A program made the translations under genes and the position numbers. This document shows positions 13,501 to 49,816 of a DNA stretch of 64,000 bases, piece by piece. Below the pieces are notes generated by a model, which searched no databases, was not told where the DNA came from, and worked only from the letters and a program-made list of their open reading frames with translations. The stretch's first letter is position 1; the number at the start of each line of letters is the position of its first letter. The stretch comes from an uncultured Candidatus Saccharibacteria bacterium (GTDB lineage Bacteria; Patescibacteriota; Saccharimonadia; UBA4664; CAZOQX01). The DNA lies in contig CAZOQX010000003.1 of the NCBI GenBank assembly GCA_964582465.1, positions 1,115 to 65,114 of the forward strand, in the 5' to 3' direction.

Positions 13501-14993
13501 GTTACATAGCTCGCATTCGAGAAAGTAGTAGTCTGATTGGGGCCGATAGGTGGACTATTAATCGACTGAGTCGTAGGTCCAGTTACAGGAGTGTCATCAG
13601 TACGAACTAGCTTATACGAGCTGGTCCAAGCCACATCGCCGGTATTCTTTAATGACTGGGTAATTTTTACAGTCGACCCCGGCGCGACAGGGTTCGGAAT
13701 AGAGCTTTGGATGCTTTGGCAGTTTGAGTTCTGGGAGCAAGTATCGTTGTAGGTTTCACTATCGTACGGGATCCAAATTTGCGGATCGTTATTGTAGCTA
13801 ATGTTGTGCCATACCCACATAAACTGCATACTATACGCCGCGGCAAAGTCTAGAGTTTTAGTTTCACCGTTGCCGCCAATAAATTCAGGGTATTTATCCG
13901 GATTCTGATCGGCAACTGCCGTCTTTACATCATAGCCCCGCCGATGAGCACTTCCCCCATTGAAAATATCTGGAGTTATCTTCCACGGCCCGGGACTAGT
14001 CCCGCCAACGTCGCGATAATATAAATCAAAGTAGATTTGTGGGTTAACCGGAGAAGAGTCGCTAGCCCCGTCCGCATCCTGCCACCTCAGCTCGTTATAA
14101 AGAATAGGATAAACCTCTTTTTGCGACAAGCAGGGGGTTGCAAACGGAATATAGAGGTCGTAGGTTCCACTCGTGTTGGTCGTATCAAGCGTGATAGGCT
14201 GATCACCTTTATCAAACCTCGCCCACAAGCCCACACGGTTCCCACCACAAGGGAAATTTTGATTTGCCCCCTGATTATTTACATCTTGTTGCATGCAACC
14301 ATCAGCTTGTGTCCCGGAGCTATAAGCTTGGATCCTGAAGTTCGCCCACCGGTCGTGACCAGGCTCAACGACCACACTGTCATCTGTGTTCATCGCCGAA
14401 ATATACCCAACTGCAAGTCGGTATACATAGTATCCGTTGCTCTTATTACTAGGCGATGATAAACATCCGCCATCGCCGTAGTTGTCAGAGTCGGTATCAA
14501 ACTTAATAGGGTCGCTCCACTGACCCGGGCTTGTAAAGAATACGGACCCTTGCTTGCCCTGAGAGATACATTTTTTGGCGTTATTATTATCGTCGAAGAT
14601 TTTGTAGGATTCGTCAGCGTTGGCGGGGGTAAAGAAAAATTTCATGCTTTTGAAATCTTGGTCAGAAGAACTTCCAGTACCTGTCCGAATTCTTATGTAG
14701 GTATTGTGGGGATCTTTGAAGTATAGCTTGATGTAAGATACGGGCGTATCGATAGCTCGACCTGTAGTGCCAGCATTGCATTGGTGGTTTGGATTGGTAA
14801 AGTAGCCTGAACATGCTTGGCTAACATCGACTTGAATATCGCCGTTCCCTCCATCGACTGTTTGATTCGGTAGAACATCATTTACTCTTACAAAGCTAAA
14901 GTCCGGGGCAGCCTGGGCTGGCTTAACCAAACTGAACAGGTTAACCGGCAGAAGCACCGCCAAAATAGTTAGCCACCTAATAAGCTTAGCCAT
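10521..14993 (-). CDS. Giant secreted surface protein (1490 aa), function unknown; candidate adhesin with beta-helix-like C-terminal region
   Basis: Uninterrupted 4.47 kb ORF with N-terminal signal peptide (LLPVNLFSLVKPAQA). Very Gly/Thr/Asn/Ser/Asp-rich. C-terminal NGDLIVNGDVSYNG...VGFIVTGNIIV repeats suggest a beta-helix. Heads the T4P locus. Confidence 0.7.
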   Translation of the reverse strand: MAKLIRWLTILAVLLPVNLFSLVKPAQAAPDFSFVRVNDVLPNQTVDGGNGDIQVDVSQACSGYFTNPNHQCNAGTTGRAIDTPVSYIKLYFKDPHNTYIRIRTGTGSSSDQDFKSMKFFFTPANADESYKIFDDNNNAKKCISQGKQGSVFFTSPGQWSDPIKFDTDSDNYGDGGCLSSPSNKSNGYYVYRLAVGYISAMNTDDSVVVEPGHDRWANFRIQAYSSGTQADGCMQQDVNNQGANQNFPCGGNRVGLWARFDKGDQPITLDTTNTSGTYDLYIPFATPCLSQKEVYPILYNELRWQDADGASDSSPVNPQIYFDLYYRDVGGTSPGPWKITPDIFNGGSAHRRGYDVKTAVADQNPDKYPEFIGGNGETKTLDFAAAYSMQFMWVWHNISYNNDPQIWIPYDSETYNDTCSQNSNCQSIQSSIPNPVAPGSTVKITQSLKNTGDVAWTSSYKLVRTDDTPVTGPTTQSINSPPIGPNQTTTFSNASYVTPATPGVYRLTFQMGTPSLVAGVYDLFGDTCAITIKSLNTPAKVYLANFIHPVLQFVRDNFKYPLFNLQAYMWPDAGNRGKTDQGTYQGNDHSTNFWLAGTWGSAFGDTNTTSENLDTDLNSMSVFNNKAEIGCPASFAATGCLQRIPLAYVPKNDGTVTSGSSTPGGNKWQPIRDVNFSTSDSNAFDPRHGGIACQDGSYFYTDGKQVWDCGGSNHINAVEISNLHINAQGIKSPANNSDDVSVVGDHGVQWQGGIDKNLLQRDTNKGADPRQSLPDNSAGPVKADNSPKPNTWDNVRNPQLFPSTYSASINDANFTNQADSDNTDVPTNFTLDPDNILKGGLGVSDLPLKSWGTTTVTSLLQDSQDNGTLKYKANNQEPLTYTTGITHVDNAQLKWDEYVNWSQLDDKGHWYPTKNAAAHDTPIGVKLGGATNASGAAGFTYSPGTADGTAGTTVTLKISNKFIVSNFTYYLGRRETKWGWLNPNATIQGQVLGQDSYFGGGFNKTNPTWADGDNDPATADLPTYWQDSTTVTTMDNSGDSTPLAHGAGVSWAFDRADPLYTNRMIYDTQVVEPVITGFDDTKSGTQNVTATYWPGGFFNLTASAANTKYYTGAGQLLQEDTANCPANFDGECDVTYDGTKDGLVNVDWGWSSNVQRARYESTFKGHTRDLGSRDVSASKPDNVLYGIESDSAAKPDRGVATIYNPTISFQNSDVYAGGKIDSYFAHSLAQSAFLYTKGLINHFDFTSPGVSGHPSQGKAFSPYALNTGNSGTYDNANNPIYAIWGQTNYNNNIVGKATNLTKVSGQNYYTMDDTFTLANGRTYYANGNLNLGDPATHTALSFAGGAGTIVVNGDLIVNGDVSYNGYSGTDRSQQTSVGFIVTGNIIVKCFNSDDCVSNLAGNYFANGAFSSGTSLVGNNDRVNVDQPLTLNGLIIASSFNLQRQPGTQLDPDINPSENFVYDGTVVSNPPPWFSTLNSAPAVWNEAVPSN

Positions 14994-15074
14994 TAGAGTT
15001 ATTGTATGAGCTTATCCACTACCAGTCAAACCCCTTAAGCTTATTGACATCATGACTGCTCCGGTAGACTATTA

Positions 15075-15707
15075 ATGTTAATGGCTAAGCGCAAAAGGAA
15101 AATGACCAGACTACTCCCATCGCTCGGCAAGCTCTCTAACCTTTCTTTCGTAGCGATCGTATGTGGCGTGGTGACTTTTGGAATACTTGCCTACTACGTG
15201 GTACACGCGCTCTCTTATCACAGAATCGGCATACTACAAGAACACGGCCAAACTTTTTACTACACCAACCCCACAACCGGCCACGTAACTGCTGAAAAAG
15301 TTATTCATCCTGATCAAGGTGATGGCGGTAAACTGTCATGTAGCAATACTTGCTGGCTCTCGGCTAAAGCAAGTTCAACCTTCCAAGACGCCTGGACTGG
15401 TCCAGGGTTTCACGTAGCGTCCAGCGGCGTAAACTCAACTAACAAGAATCAACGCGCGTGCTTTGTTATTCGGGTTGCTCCAGGTGCATCCTCAGCAATA
15501 GCAGGAATATCCGTCGATGGGACACCAGTAGGACAATCTACATCTGTTACAAAAGATTTCAAGTGTTATTGGCTGAACTACACAGTCAAAGCAGGCCAGA
15601 CCGGCCTCAGCTGGACCATCCATGTTCAGTCTGGGCAAGTTCAGATTGACCGTGTAGAACTGTGGCAGGGCGGTGCTAGTGGCAAGAGTGTTTTTGTAGA
15701 ACTGTAG
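15075..15707 (+). CDS. Secreted/membrane-anchored Cys-containing protein, tandem paralog A
   Basis: 210 aa with N-terminal hydrophobic anchor. C-terminal ~125 aa are identical to paralog B. Conserved CSNTCW, CF and C motifs. Confidence 0.6.
   Translation: MLMAKRKRKMTRLLPSLGKLSNLSFVAIVCGVVTFGILAYYVVHALSYHRIGILQEHGQTFYYTNPTTGHVTAEKVIHPDQGDGGKLSCSNTCWLSAKASSTFQDAWTGPGFHVASSGVNSTNKNQRACFVIRVAPGASSAIAGISVDGTPVGQSTSVTKDFKCYWLNYTVKAGQTGLSWTIHVQSGQVQIDRVELWQGGASGKSVFVEL
15334..15705 (+). repeat. Direct repeat copy 1 (372 bp, 100% identical to 15958-16329)
   Basis: Read directly: tgtcatgtagcaatacttgctgg...gtgtttttgtagaa occurs twice with a 624-bp period. Confidence 0.9.
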
Positions 15708-15755
15708 CTTGCTTTTGCCGTAAACATGTGATACAGTTGCATTCAACTAAACACT

Positions 15756-16334
15756 ATGTTGAAGTTTCGTTTTTCTATACTAACAGTCTACCTGGCCAGC
15801 ATAATTGCTGGCTTCTTAGCTTGGAGCTTCCCTGCCCAGGCTATTACGTATCACAAAGTCTCCACTCTCCAGGAACACTCAACTTTCTCTTATACAAATG
15901 ATGGGAAAACGATTAAAGAGAAGGTTCAGCATCCTGACTGGAGGGACGGCGGGCACATGTCATGTAGCAATACTTGCTGGCTCTCGGCTAAAGCAAGTTC
16001 AACCTTCCAAGACGCCTGGACTGGTCCAGGGTTTCACGTAGCGTCCAGCGGCGTAAACTCAACTAACAAGAATCAACGCGCGTGCTTTGTTATTCGGGTT
16101 GCTCCAGGTGCATCCTCAGCAATAGCAGGAATATCCGTCGATGGGACACCAGTAGGACAATCTACATCTGTTACAAAAGATTTCAAGTGTTATTGGCTGA
16201 ACTACACAGTCAAAGCAGGCCAGACCGGCCTCAGCTGGACCATCCATGTTCAGTCTGGGCAAGTTCAGATTGACCGTGTAGAACTGTGGCAGGGCGGTGC
16301 TAGTGGCAAGAGTGTTTTTGTAGAATTACAGTAA
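15756..16334 (+). CDS. Secreted Cys-containing protein, tandem paralog B
   Basis: 192 aa with signal peptide ending AQA. C-terminal half is identical to paralog A. Confidence 0.65.
   Translation: MLKFRFSILTVYLASIIAGFLAWSFPAQAITYHKVSTLQEHSTFSYTNDGKTIKEKVQHPDWRDGGHMSCSNTCWLSAKASSTFQDAWTGPGFHVASSGVNSTNKNQRACFVIRVAPGASSAIAGISVDGTPVGQSTSVTKDFKCYWLNYTVKAGQTGLSWTIHVQSGQVQIDRVELWQGGASGKSVFVELQ
15958..16329 (+). repeat. Direct repeat copy 2 (372 bp)
   Basis: Identical to 15334-15705. Encodes the shared C-terminal half of the two paralogs. Confidence 0.9.
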
Positions 16335-16335
16335 A

Positions 16336-17490
16336 CTAAACCACTACCTCTTTAGGCCTGTCGCGCAAATTATAATCCGAACTCATCACATAGCCGTAGG
16401 CGCCGGCGTTCAGTATTGCTAAAATCTCTCCTTCTTTCGGCATGGTAAGCTCCCGCTCCTGGGCCAATAAATCGCCAGACTCACACACATTCCCAGCTAC
16501 ATACACCACCGCCTGCTCGCCCTCTACTCTACTTGCATTCATAATTTGGTGATATGAGCCGTACATGGCCGGTCGAATTAAATGATTAAAGCCCGTGTTT
16601 ACGCCTACAAATGTGCGATCCGGGTTCTTTTTTATATCCGTCACTTTGGTGAGCAAAAAGCCGGTCTCGGCCACCAAATAACGCCCGGGCTCGAGCCGCA
16701 TTGCAACCGGCGAGCCATACTCCCGCGTAAATTTCGCCATCAGCTCGCTCGCCTGCTTACCGAATTCGGCTACGTCCAGGGGTTGCTCGCTAGGTCGATA
16801 CGGCACGCCCAAACCGCCGCCAAAATCTAAATACTTCAACCCCTCAAACCCCCGTGCCGTTTCGAGTAATACACTCATGGCGTGAATTAGAATAGCGACA
16901 TCTAACACGTTCGATCCAATGTGCTGATGCAAGCCCACGATCTTTAGGCCGTGTTTTTTCGCGATTGCTTTGGCCTCGTCGAGCTGCGAAATATCAATCC
17001 CAAATTTACTAGCCGGGCCGCCGGTAATCACATGAGCGTGGTGACCGGCCCCAATTCCTTGGTTAACCCGAATCCCCACTTCCTTTCCCAGCCCTAAGCT
17101 TCCCCACTTTTCCAGCTGGCCAAGCGAATCGAGGTTTACGGCCATTCCCTGCTCGGCCAACCATGCGAGCTCGCTCGCATCAATATTGCTACAGGTAAAT
17201 ACCAGGCGGTCAGTCGTAAAACCGGCCGCCTTTGCCCGCTCGACTTCGCCGGGACTGACGCATTCGGCACTAGCCCCTAGTTCACGAAGTTGCTTTAAAA
17301 CTTCCAAATTAGAATTAGCCTTAACCGCAAAATGGATCTGTGCCGGTTGATAAGAAATCGCCTGCTCGAGCGTCTGGTAGCGCTCCTTGATTGTCTCTAA
17401 CTCATAAACATAGAGCGGCGTGCCGTATTTTGTCGCGAGCTTGGTCGCCAGGTCCCCGCTGATATCGAGTTTATTGTCGCGTACCTGCAT
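16336..17490 (-). CDS. lysA: PLP-dependent decarboxylase, diaminopimelate decarboxylase-like
   Basis: 384 aa. The N-terminal region FAVKANSNLEVLKQLRELGASAECVSPGEVE matches the group IV (alanine racemase fold) decarboxylase family. It cannot be distinguished from ornithine/arginine decarboxylases by eye. Confidence 0.65.
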   Translation of the reverse strand: MQVRDNKLDISGDLATKLATKYGTPLYVYELETIKERYQTLEQAISYQPAQIHFAVKANSNLEVLKQLRELGASAECVSPGEVERAKAAGFTTDRLVFTCSNIDASELAWLAEQGMAVNLDSLGQLEKWGSLGLGKEVGIRVNQGIGAGHHAHVITGGPASKFGIDISQLDEAKAIAKKHGLKIVGLHQHIGSNVLDVAILIHAMSVLLETARGFEGLKYLDFGGGLGVPYRPSEQPLDVAEFGKQASELMAKFTREYGSPVAMRLEPGRYLVAETGFLLTKVTDIKKNPDRTFVGVNTGFNHLIRPAMYGSYHQIMNASRVEGEQAVVYVAGNVCESGDLLAQERELTMPKEGEILAILNAGAYGYVMSSDYNLRDRPKEVVV

Positions 17491-17522: not shown

Positions 17523-18383
17523 CTAATAAACGTCGACGGCAATATGAATGTGGTCGCGGTGATCAGCTTCCGTGGCCGGGTCATAGTGATGAGGCACACC
17601 TTGGTCGAGATTAAGGGGCGAGTTCCAGTAGATTAGCTCATCCACATGATACTCGGCGCGATGATTAAAGACGTAAGGCATGATCGAGACATGCTGCTCC
17701 TGGTTGGCAATATCAACCGCTAGACCGCGGTAATGGAAGCTATTTGTCACATGATGACCATTAGTGAGGTACGCTATCACAATCGGAATGCCACGATTTG
17801 CCATGTCGTTCACGAGTTTGAGCAAGTCCGCGCTCACACGCACGCATTGGCCAGTGGCTTCCACGGGTGCACACTCCCCCCGTGCCACTCGCTGCATAAT
17901 ACCTACCGTCTGCGGCTGAATCGAAATGTGCGGATTCTGCAAAATTAGCTGGGCGTAATAGGCGGCATTATTTACAGGTTGCGTTAAGCTCGCACAACTC
18001 TTGCCCTGGGTGCGGTAAATGGCACACCAAGTGTTGAGGTTAGCAACGCCAATGTTTGCCGCACTTTGCCCCAGTGGCTTGTTACCTAGCCCGCGGTGAT
18101 TGGGATCAAGCTGGTAATAAATCAGAGCTGATTTGGTTGGCCAATCGAAGTAGCCATTAATTTTGAGCGCCTGCCTGGCAGCAAAGGATACGCTTCCGGA
18201 ATTCTTGAGGTGCCACTGTAAATTCTTCACGCAGACGCCTGTGCTGTTCATGCTAAGCACTGGCTTAACGGGACAGGCAAAGGGATCTTGGCCAGTCGCA
18301 TGCGCTGGGGCAACTGCAATAAGCGGCATCACTACCGCAACCAGCGCTACTATAATTTTTGCAAACTTCAACTTCATAGCCAA
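17523..18383 (-). CDS. Secreted peptidoglycan-binding-domain protein with M15 (VanY-like) D,D-/L,D-peptidase domain
   Basis: 286 aa with signal peptide. Mid-region resembles PG-binding domain 1. C-terminus has SFHYRGLAVDI and DHIHIAVD, matching the SxHxxGxAxD ... DxxHxH zinc motifs of peptidase M15. Confidence 0.6.
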   Translation of the reverse strand: MAMKLKFAKIIVALVAVVMPLIAVAPAHATGQDPFACPVKPVLSMNSTGVCVKNLQWHLKNSGSVSFAARQALKINGYFDWPTKSALIYYQLDPNHRGLGNKPLGQSAANIGVANLNTWCAIYRTQGKSCASLTQPVNNAAYYAQLILQNPHISIQPQTVGIMQRVARGECAPVEATGQCVRVSADLLKLVNDMANRGIPIVIAYLTNGHHVTNSFHYRGLAVDIANQEQHVSIMPYVFNHRAEYHVDELIYWNSPLNLDQGVPHHYDPATEADHRDHIHIAVDVY

Positions 18384-18564: not shown

Positions 18565-18966
18565 CTACTGGCTAATCGGACCGAGGCCTTGCAGCAAATG
18601 CTGGCGTACCTGTAGATGCTGATCAAATTGGCTCAGCCGCTCCTTGATCTGGCTATCGCTTAGGCCCTTGCCCCTAAGCTTAGATGTCAGATCATCTCGA
18701 AGCTTCTGGTGGAATTGATCAAGCGTCATTCCATGCTCCTGCACAATTTGCTGAAGAGTTTTGGTCTTCAGCTCACTCCGCAGGTCAGCTGGCTTCACGC
18801 CTAGCACACTGGCTACTCCATCAAGCGGATGCCGATGCATTTGCCGCATCGAAGTCATCCCAGGATGTGCAGGCCGGTTTGAGCTCGCGAAAGAGCTCGC
18901 TCCCACCATAGCCGCAGCTCCAACTAAGATCCCGCCGGCCATTAAAGCAATTTTTTGTTTAACCAC
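18565..18966 (-). CDS. Small secreted hypothetical protein
   Basis: 133 aa with N-terminal signal/anchor (IALMAGGILVGAAAMVGASSFA). A hairpin plus T-run immediately downstream on the minus strand (~18510-18545) is consistent with a terminator. Confidence 0.45.
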   Translation of the reverse strand: MVKQKIALMAGGILVGAAAMVGASSFASSNRPAHPGMTSMRQMHRHPLDGVASVLGVKPADLRSELKTKTLQQIVQEHGMTLDQFHQKLRDDLTSKLRGKGLSDSQIKERLSQFDQHLQVRQHLLQGLGPISQ

Positions 18967-19075: not shown

Positions 19076-19471
19076 CTACTTGGAAACCGCACAGGCCTGA
19101 GCGAAGGAGGCGTGGTAGCCTTTCTTCGCCGCGAGGTGGGACGCCCAAGGGTACATGTCGCCAGACCGGCGAGTCAGCAGGACGTTGTAGTCCTCCTGGG
19201 CGCCTGCCGGGTCGGTGACGAAGTACACATAGGCCCGAACCGGCCGGTAGCTGCTAGACACGGGCCAGGTCAAGCGTTGCCGCCCATCCCTCCACCCGAT
19301 CTGGATTTTGACCGGACCAGTGAACTTGTAGCGATACGGCCGGTGCTGCCGTGTGGGCTTCGCGATACCATGAATCTGGTTACCACGACAGACCTTGCCG
19401 CTCGCCTGAGCAGGCAAAGCGCCCATCGCCACGACGGACACAATCACTGCCAACCAAATGAAACGCCGCAT
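19076..19471 (-). CDS. Small secreted hypothetical protein encoded in a GC-rich block
   Basis: 131 aa with a clear signal peptide MRRFIWLAVIVSVVAMGALPAQA. Local GC is visibly higher than the flanks. The antisense 131-aa ORF lacks a signal peptide and was not preferred. Confidence 0.5.
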   Translation of the reverse strand: MRRFIWLAVIVSVVAMGALPAQASGKVCRGNQIHGIAKPTRQHRPYRYKFTGPVKIQIGWRDGRQRLTWPVSSSYRPVRAYVYFVTDPAGAQEDYNVLLTRRSGDMYPWASHLAAKKGYHASFAQACAVSK

Positions 19472-23765: not shown

Positions 23766-24371
23766 TTAGTTGTCCTTCGTAAACCGATCGACAACTTTTT
23801 TGATACTTTCGTAAGTAAACCCTTTGCGCCCCAAGTGCGCCATTAGCTTTTGACGATCGGGGTACTTGACCATCAGTTTTTGGCGCTCAACTAGATCTGC
23901 CAAGACTTCTTCCTCATCATGTCCCCCCAGCGCCTCTTCAATCTCGTCAGTTCCCAGGCCTTTTTGGCGCAATTCCTGCACAAGCTGTAAACGCGAGCGT
24001 GGGCGCAGCAGACGGCGGCTTTCTACCCAGCTTGCAGCAAAATCGCTATCGTTCAGGAGGCTCCGTGCCACCAGCTCACGGACAATGTCGGCTGTTTGCT
24101 CCTTTGAATAGCCCTTTCTCTCGAGGTATTGCAGCACCTCATCTTGACTGCGTGGCCGAATGGCAAGATACGATAGCGCCTTTTCCAAAGCCTTGTTCTT
24201 TTCGGCCGCTGACTTAAAGCGTTCAAGTTCCTCAGCGCCAACTTCACTCCCCTCACGCAGACCACTGTCCGCCAGAAACAAAGCGGAGCAAGCAAACGAG
24301 TATTTACCGTCCACGAAGATTGAATAGCGTTCGCGGGCCGCTTGCTTCTTGATCTTGGTAATTTGCGGCAT
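23766..24371 (-). CDS. recX: Recombination regulator RecX
   Basis: 201 aa helical-repeat protein immediately downstream of recA. RecX-like repeats (ALSYLAIRPRSQDEVLQYLERKGY). Confidence 0.8.
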   Translation of the reverse strand: MPQITKIKKQAARERYSIFVDGKYSFACSALFLADSGLREGSEVGAEELERFKSAAEKNKALEKALSYLAIRPRSQDEVLQYLERKGYSKEQTADIVRELVARSLLNDSDFAASWVESRRLLRPRSRLQLVQELRQKGLGTDEIEEALGGHDEEEVLADLVERQKLMVKYPDRQKLMAHLGRKGFTYESIKKVVDRFTKDN

Positions 24372-24373
24372 TA

Positions 24374-25402
24374 CTAAGTAGTTTGGGCTTTTTTGCGTAC
24401 GGCGCCTGCAAGTTCTTCCAGGATCTTGGGATTATCCTTCAGATATTGCTTGGCCGCCTCGCGTCCTTGGGCGATCTTCTCTTCTTTGTACTCGTACCAA
24501 GCGCCTGTTTTTTGCACTAACTCGTGCTTAACCGCCAGATCGAGCACATCACCAGCGCGCGAGATGCCCTCGTTAAACATAATGTCGAACTCGGCCACCT
24601 TGAAAGGCGGTGCGACCTTATTTTTAACTACCTTGACCTTTACGTGATTCCCTACTGGCGTATCAGCGTCCTTAATTTGCTCGGTACGGCGGATGTCCAA
24701 ACGCACCGAAGCATAGAATTTCAAAGCGTTACCGCCGGGCGTAGTTTCCGGATTGCCGAACATAACGCCGATCTTCATGCGCAGCTGGTTGATGAAAATG
24801 ACAGTAGTTTTGGACTTGCTGATGACTCCAGTGAGTTTGCGTAAAGCTTGAGACATTAGCCGCGCCTGCAGACCCACGTGCGCATCGCCCATGTCGCCCT
24901 CAATTTCAGCCCGGGGCACCAAGGCTGCGACAGAATCAATAATCACGACATCAACAGCGTTTGAGCGCACCAAAGTTTCGGCGATTTCTAAAGCCTGCTC
25001 GCCTGTATCGGGCTGCGAGATTAGCAGATCGTCGAGATTAACCCCAATTCTTTTAGCGTACTCGGGATCCAGAGCGTGCTCTGCATCCACAAAAGCCGCC
25101 ATGCCGCCCGATTTCTGGGTGCTTGCTACCACATGCAGCGCCAGCGTGGTTTTTCCGCTCGATTCCGGCCCATAAATTTCGATAATTCGGCCCTTCGGTA
25201 TACCTCCACCGAGAGCGAGATCCAGCGACAAACTACCCGTAGGAATAGTTTCGACATCAATTTTGTGCGACTCGCCCAGGCGCATAATAGCGCCCTTACC
25301 AAATTGCTTTTCGATTTGCTCGACCGCAAGACCAATCGCTTGCATGCGCGAGGATCTATCGCCCTTTTGTTCCACGATTTTCTCCGCTACTGCTGTTGCC
25401 AT
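24374..25402 (-). CDS. recA: Recombinase RecA
   Basis: 342 aa. [13 protein letters not shown] Walker A and a canonical RecA core. Confidence 0.95.
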
Positions 25403-49143: not shown

Positions 49144-49233
49144 GGAGAGGTCGCATAGTGGCCTAGTGCGCTCGCTTGGAAAGCGGGTGAAGTCGCAAGG
49201 CTTCCGAGGGTTCGAATCCCTCCCTCTCCGCCA
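49144..49233 (+). tRNA. tRNA-Ser (anticodon GGA), CCA encoded
   Basis: Hand-folded. Acceptor GGAGAGG/CCTCTCC, 3-bp D-stem (type II), anticodon stem CTCGC/GCGGG with loop TTGGAAA (anticodon GGA), long variable arm TGAAGTCGCAAGGCTTCC, T-arm GAGGG-TTCGAAT-CCCTC, discriminator G, CCA. Confidence 0.85.
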
Positions 49234-49259
49234 ATTTCAAAAAGGTTTGACTTTAAAAA

Positions 49260-49293
49260 GTGATGCCCCGCCTCACGACGGGGCATCACTTTT
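49260..49293. terminator. Bidirectional rho-independent terminator (10-bp perfect stem GTGATGCCCC/GGGGCATCAC)
   Basis: Read directly. A-run on the 5' side and TTTT on the 3' side. Sits between tRNA-Ser (plus) and the 3' end of the minus-strand gene 49316..49651. Confidence 0.75.
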
Positions 49294-49315
49294 GATGCAT
49301 TGTCGATCAGCGGGA

Positions 49316-49651
49316 CTAAATGAGCTGGGAGAGAGCCGCTCGGTCCTCGGCCATCCACAGGTACCCCTTGCGGGTGGTGGTATTGACGAATCCCCCCACT
49401 GCCCACCTCTTGTGGGTCTCGATTACTTCGCCGTCCAACGTCTCAGACATGACCATGCCCTCGATGTTGTGCGTGTGACCAGAACCGTCCTCGTGCTCGA
49501 GACGGCGGATGCGTGCGTAGACGGTGTGGCCATTCGCGAGATCGAGCTTGGCGAACAGTTTCACCGGACTGAAGGCGAATTTATAGCAATCCGCCAGTCG
49601 ATCGTCAGAAGGACAATCGACTATCTCGAGCTTTTCCAACCAATTCGTCAT
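49316..49651 (-). CDS. Hypothetical protein in a GC-rich block adjacent to tRNA-Ser
   Basis: 111 aa, no recognised motifs. The block ~49300-49760 is visibly GC-rich. An AT-rich promoter region follows before the ABC transporter. Confidence 0.4.
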   Translation of the reverse strand: MTNWLEKLEIVDCPSDDRLADCYKFAFSPVKLFAKLDLANGHTVYARIRRLEHEDGSGHTHNIEGMVMSETLDGEVIETHKRWAVGGFVNTTTRKGYLWMAEDRAALSQLI

Positions 49652-49816
49652 GCCACCCCCTTTGGGGTACGGTGTCTGTCAGGCCGACACTCTCGCCGTT
49701 ACTCCTTTGGGGAGTCACCAGCCCATACGAGCTGGGATTTAATTAGGATAATACCACTTAAGCTTTAGTTTGTCAATTGATTAGCCAAACCACTGACGCG
49801 GATTTACAATTAGGCT

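Follow-up and report, generated by a model that had tools for sequence, protein, structure and literature searches.

Two tandem paralogs with identical 3′ parts and diverged 5′ parts: probable recent gene conversion between genes for predicted jelly-roll proteins

How two adjacent genes come to be identical base for base over one part of their length and strongly diverged over the rest is the question raised by a pair of paralogs in the 64-kb stretch of DNA analysed here (hereafter the window). A base-by-base comparison at an offset of 624 gave 368 identities in 368 bp between the two copies of a direct repeat, one in each gene (copies A and B, Table 1), and 256 bp lie between these perfect copies. 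The first-pass annotation had put the identical tract at 372 bp; a long perfect repeat at a 624-bp offset is indeed present, but it spans 368 bp only, the four further bases at 15702-15705 being an overshoot. Positions 15702, 15704 and 15705 differ, and the sequence after the repeat reads CTG TAG in copy 1 and TTA CAG TAA in copy 2. The 5′ boundary of the repeat is sharp, with 62% identity across the 40 nt directly upstream. Copy A codes for residues S..VFVE of paralog 1, which make up approximately three quarters of the mature domain, at its C-terminal end. Taking the nucleotide identity of the homologous 5′ parts (~59%) as background, the probability of 368 consecutive matches is ~1e-84, and chance is therefore ruled out as the source of the identity. 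A third copy of the repeat was found in the window neither with 20-mers nor by a family-profile search of the six reading frames.

Both paralog ORFs are co-oriented, in frame and uninterrupted, with proper starts and stops, in agreement with their earlier description as a tandem pair. Paralog 1 starts with a basic stretch (KRKRK), followed by 21 hydrophobic residues that could be a signal peptide or a signal anchor, the sequence VHA-LSYH and a beta-sandwich domain of ~160 aa, while paralog 2 has a classical signal peptide ending AQA-ITYH that is followed by the same domain. A hydrophobic N-terminal segment of ~20 residues followed by VHA-L (copy 1) or AQA-I (copy 2) makes export of both proteins plausible. 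The order of the locus (5′ part 1, repeat, spacer, 5′ part 2, repeat) is set by the unique sequence of the spacer. A terminator scan found no terminator-like site in these 48 bp, and the two genes are thus probably co-transcribed as an operon. The GC content across the pair is ~47-48%, slightly below the window mean of 52%.

Table 1. Coordinates of the paralog pair and of associated features, in window positions.
Feature	Coordinates	Strand	Basis
Giant orphan gene, 1490 aa	10521-14993	-	ORF list; first gene of type IV pilus operon; N-terminal hydrophobic leader
Divergent intergenic region, giant gene / paralog 1	14994-15080	.	Consensus matches only
Paralog 1, 208 aa (alternative ATG at 15075 gives 210 aa)	15081-15707	+	ORF list; database entry P0002, 208 aa; hydropathy; profile match, E 3e-82
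Diverged 5′ part of mature domain, paralog 1	15210-15333	+	Homologue in paralog 2 at 15840-15957
Exact repeat copy A, 368 bp	15334-15701	+	Base-by-base comparison and repeat search
Spacer between paralogs, 48 bp, unique sequence	15708-15755	+	Sequence; terminator scan
Paralog 2, 192 aa	15756-16334	+	ORF list; P0001 100% identical; hydropathy; profile match, E 2e-85
Exact repeat copy B, 368 bp, inside paralog 2	15958-16325	+	Base-by-base comparison and repeat search
recX	23766-24371	-	Neighbour of recA
recA	24374-25402	-	RecA match, E 1.6e-141

The two parts of the genes differ sharply in their synonymous divergence. A codon alignment of the mature N-terminal segments, upstream of SCSNTCW, showed 21 of 38 residues to be identical (55%), close to the "~50%" protein identity quoted previously for the upstream halves, and a nucleotide identity of 59%. 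Third-position identity was 39%, different codons were used at 12 of the 21 conserved residues, and the Nei-Gojobori method gave a saturated pS of 0.81 and a pN of 0.31 (pN/pS ~0.4). The signal-sequence region has diverged further than this segment. The paralogs are alignable over their full length, and their 5′ parts hold the family motifs YH[KR][VI]..LQEH and HPD..DGG. Saturated synonymous divergence, both in the signal sequences and over the first ~40 residues of the mature proteins, points to an old duplication, and the divergence of the N part looks like old divergence under constraint; with pN this far below pS the segment carries no sign of positive selection, and the proposal that it is under diversifying selection was not borne out. 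In the 3′ part, by comparison, ~71 synonymous differences would be expected over ~88 synonymous sites. None was observed in the 368-bp tract; the 3′ part has just two, both of them in the last Leu codon and beyond the tract.

Neither paralog matched a family in Pfam or NCBIfam at E <= 0.1 or 0.01, and a search of PDB sequences with the family profile returned no match below E 0.65. Homologues were sought by a word-indexed search of 5.8 billion proteins and, exhaustively, with HMMER among 1.84 billion cluster representatives (~15 billion proteins). The word-indexed search found only the two window proteins, to which P0006 was added when the profile was used, and the HMMER search found two true relatives, P0004 and P0006. 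P0006 (237 aa) stands alone and has a hydrophobic leader at its N-terminus. In P0004, a protein of 594 aa, the domain occupies residues 424-587 and is preceded by a beta-propeller containing PQQ_2 and SBBP repeats. Both are encoded in single copy on high-GC contigs (61-68%) and have no neighbours in common with the window locus. No relatives of the paralogs were found in genome contigs or metagenome contigs. The family is new in being unannotated and extremely rare, with four members among ~15 billion predicted proteins.

The alignment of P0004 and P0006 with the mature window proteins covers these from one end to the other and takes in the diverged N part (YH[KR]VG..QE, HPD..GG). The four-sequence alignment has 34 invariant columns, eight of them in the N part (Y4, Q11, E12, V29, H31, P32, G37 and G38), and the C-terminal part holds the conserved motifs ACFV and W.I.V..G.V.ID.V.L.QGG; a conserved pair of Cys residues (ACFV...C) is predicted. 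An AlphaFold2 model built from this alignment (pLDDT 70.1, pTM 0.71) consists of 12 strands and no helix, and its residues 4-28 form three strands predicted with confidence equal to that of the rest. On both the alignment and the model, the mature protein (~160 aa) is a single domain, inside which the conversion boundary falls. The pair had been described as a C-terminal module with diversifying N-termini, a picture contradicted by relatives that cover the whole mature protein, by the invariant positions of the N part and by the equally confident N-terminal strands.

By prediction from the four-sequence model the domain folds as a beta jelly roll, a class assignment of moderate confidence. A jelly roll is the fold expected of a carbohydrate-binding module (CBM) or lectin, and the Foldseek match list agrees with it and adds the BC2L-C N-terminal lectin, at TM-scores of only 0.4-0.5. 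Folds of this class commonly serve to bind glycans or surface receptors, and membership of the predicted domain in any defined family is without support. From the model we infer that the pair may bind a surface ligand or glycan, a role possibly tied to the adjacent operon of pilus genes and giant gene; no sequence-family match in Pfam, NCBIfam or PDB sequences supports glycan binding. The statement that the pattern is typical of host-interaction proteins is conjecture, the jelly-roll fold and the proximity of the pilus operon being the sole evidence for it.

Among the HMMER matches there were also cadherin, fn3 and PKD repeat proteins; these were rejected because their scores are sums over near-identical repeats; the E of 5.6e-21 for the cadherin candidate P0003 arises from summing four such repeats. 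Local similarity of 33-36% to the bacterial cadherin repeats of P0003 was noted over 16011-16274 (residues 58-145 of mature paralog 2), with the shared motifs GTPVG, L.Y.[IV].AG.TG and SGQ[IV].[IV]D. This likeness was put down to chance, as the best pairwise alignment (36% over 98 aa) crosses a repeat boundary and P0004 and P0006 both lack the motifs; nor are the window proteins matched by the Cadherin model of Pfam. Separately, the N-terminal motif YH[KR]VG..QE...HP[DE]W in the diverged 5′ parts of both genes (15210-15333 and 15840-15957) resembles residues 234-271 of PDB 5n4f, part of a prolyl-oligopeptidase beta-propeller, at a non-significant E of 0.65. The resemblance may be coincidence; P0004 has the domain fused behind a beta-propeller.

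The ORF list bears out the divergent arrangement of the pair and the neighbouring 1490-aa ORF. This giant gene is followed on the minus strand by the remainder of a type IV pilus operon, encoding PilN, PilO, PilC/GspF, three proteins with prepilin motifs, a PPIase and PilM. The sole Pfam match of the giant protein is the Ig-like N_BRCA1_IG (residues 436-527), and among 5.8 billion proteins it has one distant relative, P0010, with 30% identity over 17% of the query. In the intergenic region, a minus-strand promoter-like site (TTGACT-17-TACAAT, 15029-15001) ends 8 nt before the giant-gene ATG at 14993, and a TTGACA hexamer at 15044-15049 faces the pair, with the paralog 1 ATGs within ~30 nt; both are consensus matches only, and promoter and terminator scans gave nothing above shuffled expectation. 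With promoter-like sites so near the ATGs, the transcripts in both directions may lack a leader or carry only a very short one.

Downstream, lysA converges on paralog 2. The two stops (TAA at 16332-16334 for paralog 2, 16336-16338 for lysA) are tightly packed, 1 nt apart, and there is no terminator-like site or structure between them. The closest lysA relatives are 52-53% identical and come from Nomurabacteria and Parcubacteria MAGs; no syntenic locus was found among lysA relatives (<=53% identity), and the lineage is poorly sampled and of CPR affiliation at most as a weak guess. Just past lysA lie three more small or medium-sized proteins with hydrophobic leaders, encoded at 17523-18383(-), 18565-18966(-) and 19076-19471(-), for which no confident family assignment was obtained; one of them, of 286 aa, gives weak PG_binding_1 and Hedgehog-N (zinc peptidase-like) signals. 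The pair, the giant protein and these three ORFs form a cluster of probably exported proteins. The rest of the window is core chromosome, with genes for RecA, RecX, FtsK, RNase J, PNPase, TruB, PolA, Fpg, RpoD, DnaG, GroEL, a Mur ligase and a class I aminoacyl-tRNA synthetase that is probably LeuRS. The sole RNA gene detected in the 64 kb is a tRNA-Ser(GGA) at 49144-49233(+); an ORF at 49166-49768 overlaps it, and the 5′ end of this ORF is probably spurious.

We consider it probable, though well short of assured, that the pair are old tandem duplicates, encoding exported jelly-roll proteins, whose 3′ 368 bp have been made identical by recent RecA-dependent intrachromosomal gene conversion. Two homologous copies are present in the genome, the identity of the tract far exceeds that of its flank across a sharp boundary, and recA and recX lie in the window, so that the genome encodes homologous-recombination machinery. 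Zero differences in the 368-bp repeat, in a 3′ part with ~88 synonymous sites, beside a homologous part with a pS of 0.81 uphold the first-pass reading of recent gene conversion or recombination; recent recombination is the only biological route to such a contrast, which would otherwise reflect an assembly consensus. An old tandem duplication would have yielded the two co-oriented paralogs, and the 3′ 368 bp would have been homogenised very recently through non-reciprocal recombination of this kind. The 3′ limit of the tract, two codons ahead of the stop, would mark where the duplicated homology runs out, and the 5′ limit would lie inside the domain, at a point where sequence divergence now blocks extension of the heteroduplex.

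The latest conversion would probably be one of a series of recurrent events that keep the 3′ ~60% of the genes homogeneous, a form of partial concerted evolution. One conversion between copies only ~60% identical would be hard to start, and a part that repeated homogenisation has never allowed to diverge is therefore a more plausible history than one isolated event. There is also almost no flanking homology at the 3′ end of the tract, and together with the difficulty of initiation this forces either a recurrent version of the mechanism or one involving partial re-duplication, which counts against simple conversion. The direct repeats, so closely spaced, should themselves be open to RecA-mediated deletion that leaves one hybrid gene; as both copies persist, either the event was very recent or there is selection for both. 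No orthologous locus was found in protein collections, 185,579 species genomes or metagenome contigs. Partial gene conversion between tandem paralogs is a well-known phenomenon, and the mechanism adds nothing new to it.

An unlikely but by no means negligible reading is that the identical 3′ halves are those of young duplicates and not of converted old ones. A recent tandem duplication might have been followed by replacement of the 5′ part of one copy (signal sequence and ~40 residues) with a divergent allele from another lineage, or the locus might have arisen by partial re-duplication or unequal crossing-over, courses of events that we likewise regard as doubtful. Duplication with allele replacement would leave the same mosaic signature, recent duplication accounts for identity that reaches the gene end without flanking homology, and the single-copy state of the other family members at their loci points to a lineage-specific duplication. 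Replacement, however, calls for two rare events and a donor lineage with a homologue, no such donor was found in the collections searched, and the 48-bp spacer and second signal sequence show no trace of the region upstream of the first copy. Less probable again is an effect of assembly, in which merely similar 3′ halves were merged into one consensus used twice, or the tandem order or copy number was misassembled at a repeat longer than the k-mer. The source is probably a metagenome-assembled genome of a barely sampled lineage and a 368-bp perfect repeat exceeds usual k-mer sizes; the earlier flagging of the repeat as an assembly risk point was legitimate. Against misassembly, unique junctions fix the order of upstream flank, 5′ part 1, repeat, spacer with 5′ part 2, repeat and lysA, both genes keep an unbroken reading frame between a proper start and a proper stop, and a chimera of two strains would not produce the spacer junction. 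The main assembly risk is that near-identical copies were merged to exact identity, in which case the 100% figure may be exaggerated, or that the copy number exceeds two.

Programmed variation, whether by a diversity-generating retroelement (DGR) with its template and variable repeat or by a pilin-like expressed locus with silent cassettes linked to the type IV pilus genes, is very improbable and largely refuted, even if repeats in exported proteins adjoining a pilus operon invite it. Zero mismatches in 368 bp leave none that could be adenine-specific, and no reverse transcriptase was present among the ORFs of at least 150 aa scanned against Pfam, a scan that took in all but a few of the ORFs of that size. 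Unlike silent cassettes, each of the two copies is a full gene that possesses a start and a leader; the pair lacks the prepilin GFxxxE motif and any match to pilin models, which the true pilins nearby do match; and there are only two copies in 64 kb. The same scan revealed no integrase or transposase, and an explanation by mobile elements was rejected. Scarcely credible, and refuted by the contrast in synonymous sites, is the idea that the 3′ halves owe their identity to nothing more than purifying selection on a C-terminal part of critical function. The conserved motifs of that part would fit, but selection at the protein level does not preserve synonymous sites, and the 368-bp repeat without a difference, in a 3′ part with ~88 such sites, adjoins a segment with saturated pS.

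The analysis is of modest use on three counts. For users of the assembly, the 368-bp perfect repeat marks a spot that needs verification. The analysis defines a domain family that is very rare and unannotated and has a predicted CBM-like fold. It also shows that this family has an orphan giant protein and a type IV pilus operon for neighbours, in a lineage that has been sampled little and in which ligands at the cell surface are of interest. A long shot is that the pair is the founding example of a lectin-like (CBM-fold) family at the surface of a possibly CPR-type bacterium with an adjacent pilus and giant-protein operon, in which recurrent conversion keeps the ligand-binding body identical and the diverged leaders and first strands give two forms of deployment, for example one anchored and one released. 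On that lectin-like reading, the repeat would permit RecA-mediated deletion or expansion and hence copy-number switching at the population level. If binding of host or environmental glycans were true the family would be a useful marker; otherwise the locus is a routine mosaic paralog pair.

The predicted domain is most readily compared with jelly-roll (galactose-binding-domain-like) proteins, namely CBM35, CBM6, CBM22, CBM61, the BC2L-C N-terminal lectin and the receptor-binding domains of iota toxin Ib and CDTb. Sequence identity to these is 5-17%, at the low TM-scores given above, and unlike CBMs and lectins the window domain has no identifiable ligand site and no enzyme partner encoded nearby. 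For the mosaic itself, the nearest parallel is Helicobacter pylori, in which, according to a summary of Pride & Blaser (2002) in PMC3960876, the babA/babB and homA/homB genes have 3′ segments that are near-identical within a genome and 5′ segments that are divergent, a pattern attributed to RecA-dependent intragenomic gene conversion. As far as that summary goes, the window pair shares with these genes the combination of 3′ identity and 5′ divergence in exported proteins. It differs in that the H. pylori loci are dispersed and the window copies are adjacent tandem genes, in that the H. pylori products are outer-membrane beta-barrel adhesins and those of the window are small, soluble or anchored, predicted jelly rolls, and in that phase-variable repeats were not seen at the window pair, for which recurrence is a proposal. 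In bacteria, duplicated housekeeping genes such as tuf and the rRNA operons are also known to be homogenised by gene conversion (surveyed in PMC6053082). These have in common with the window pair both the proposed mechanism and the signature of paralogs identical at synonymous sites, but tuf and rRNA genes are usually homogenised whole and kept so over long times, whereas in the window pair it is part of a small lineage-specific gene that has been made identical.
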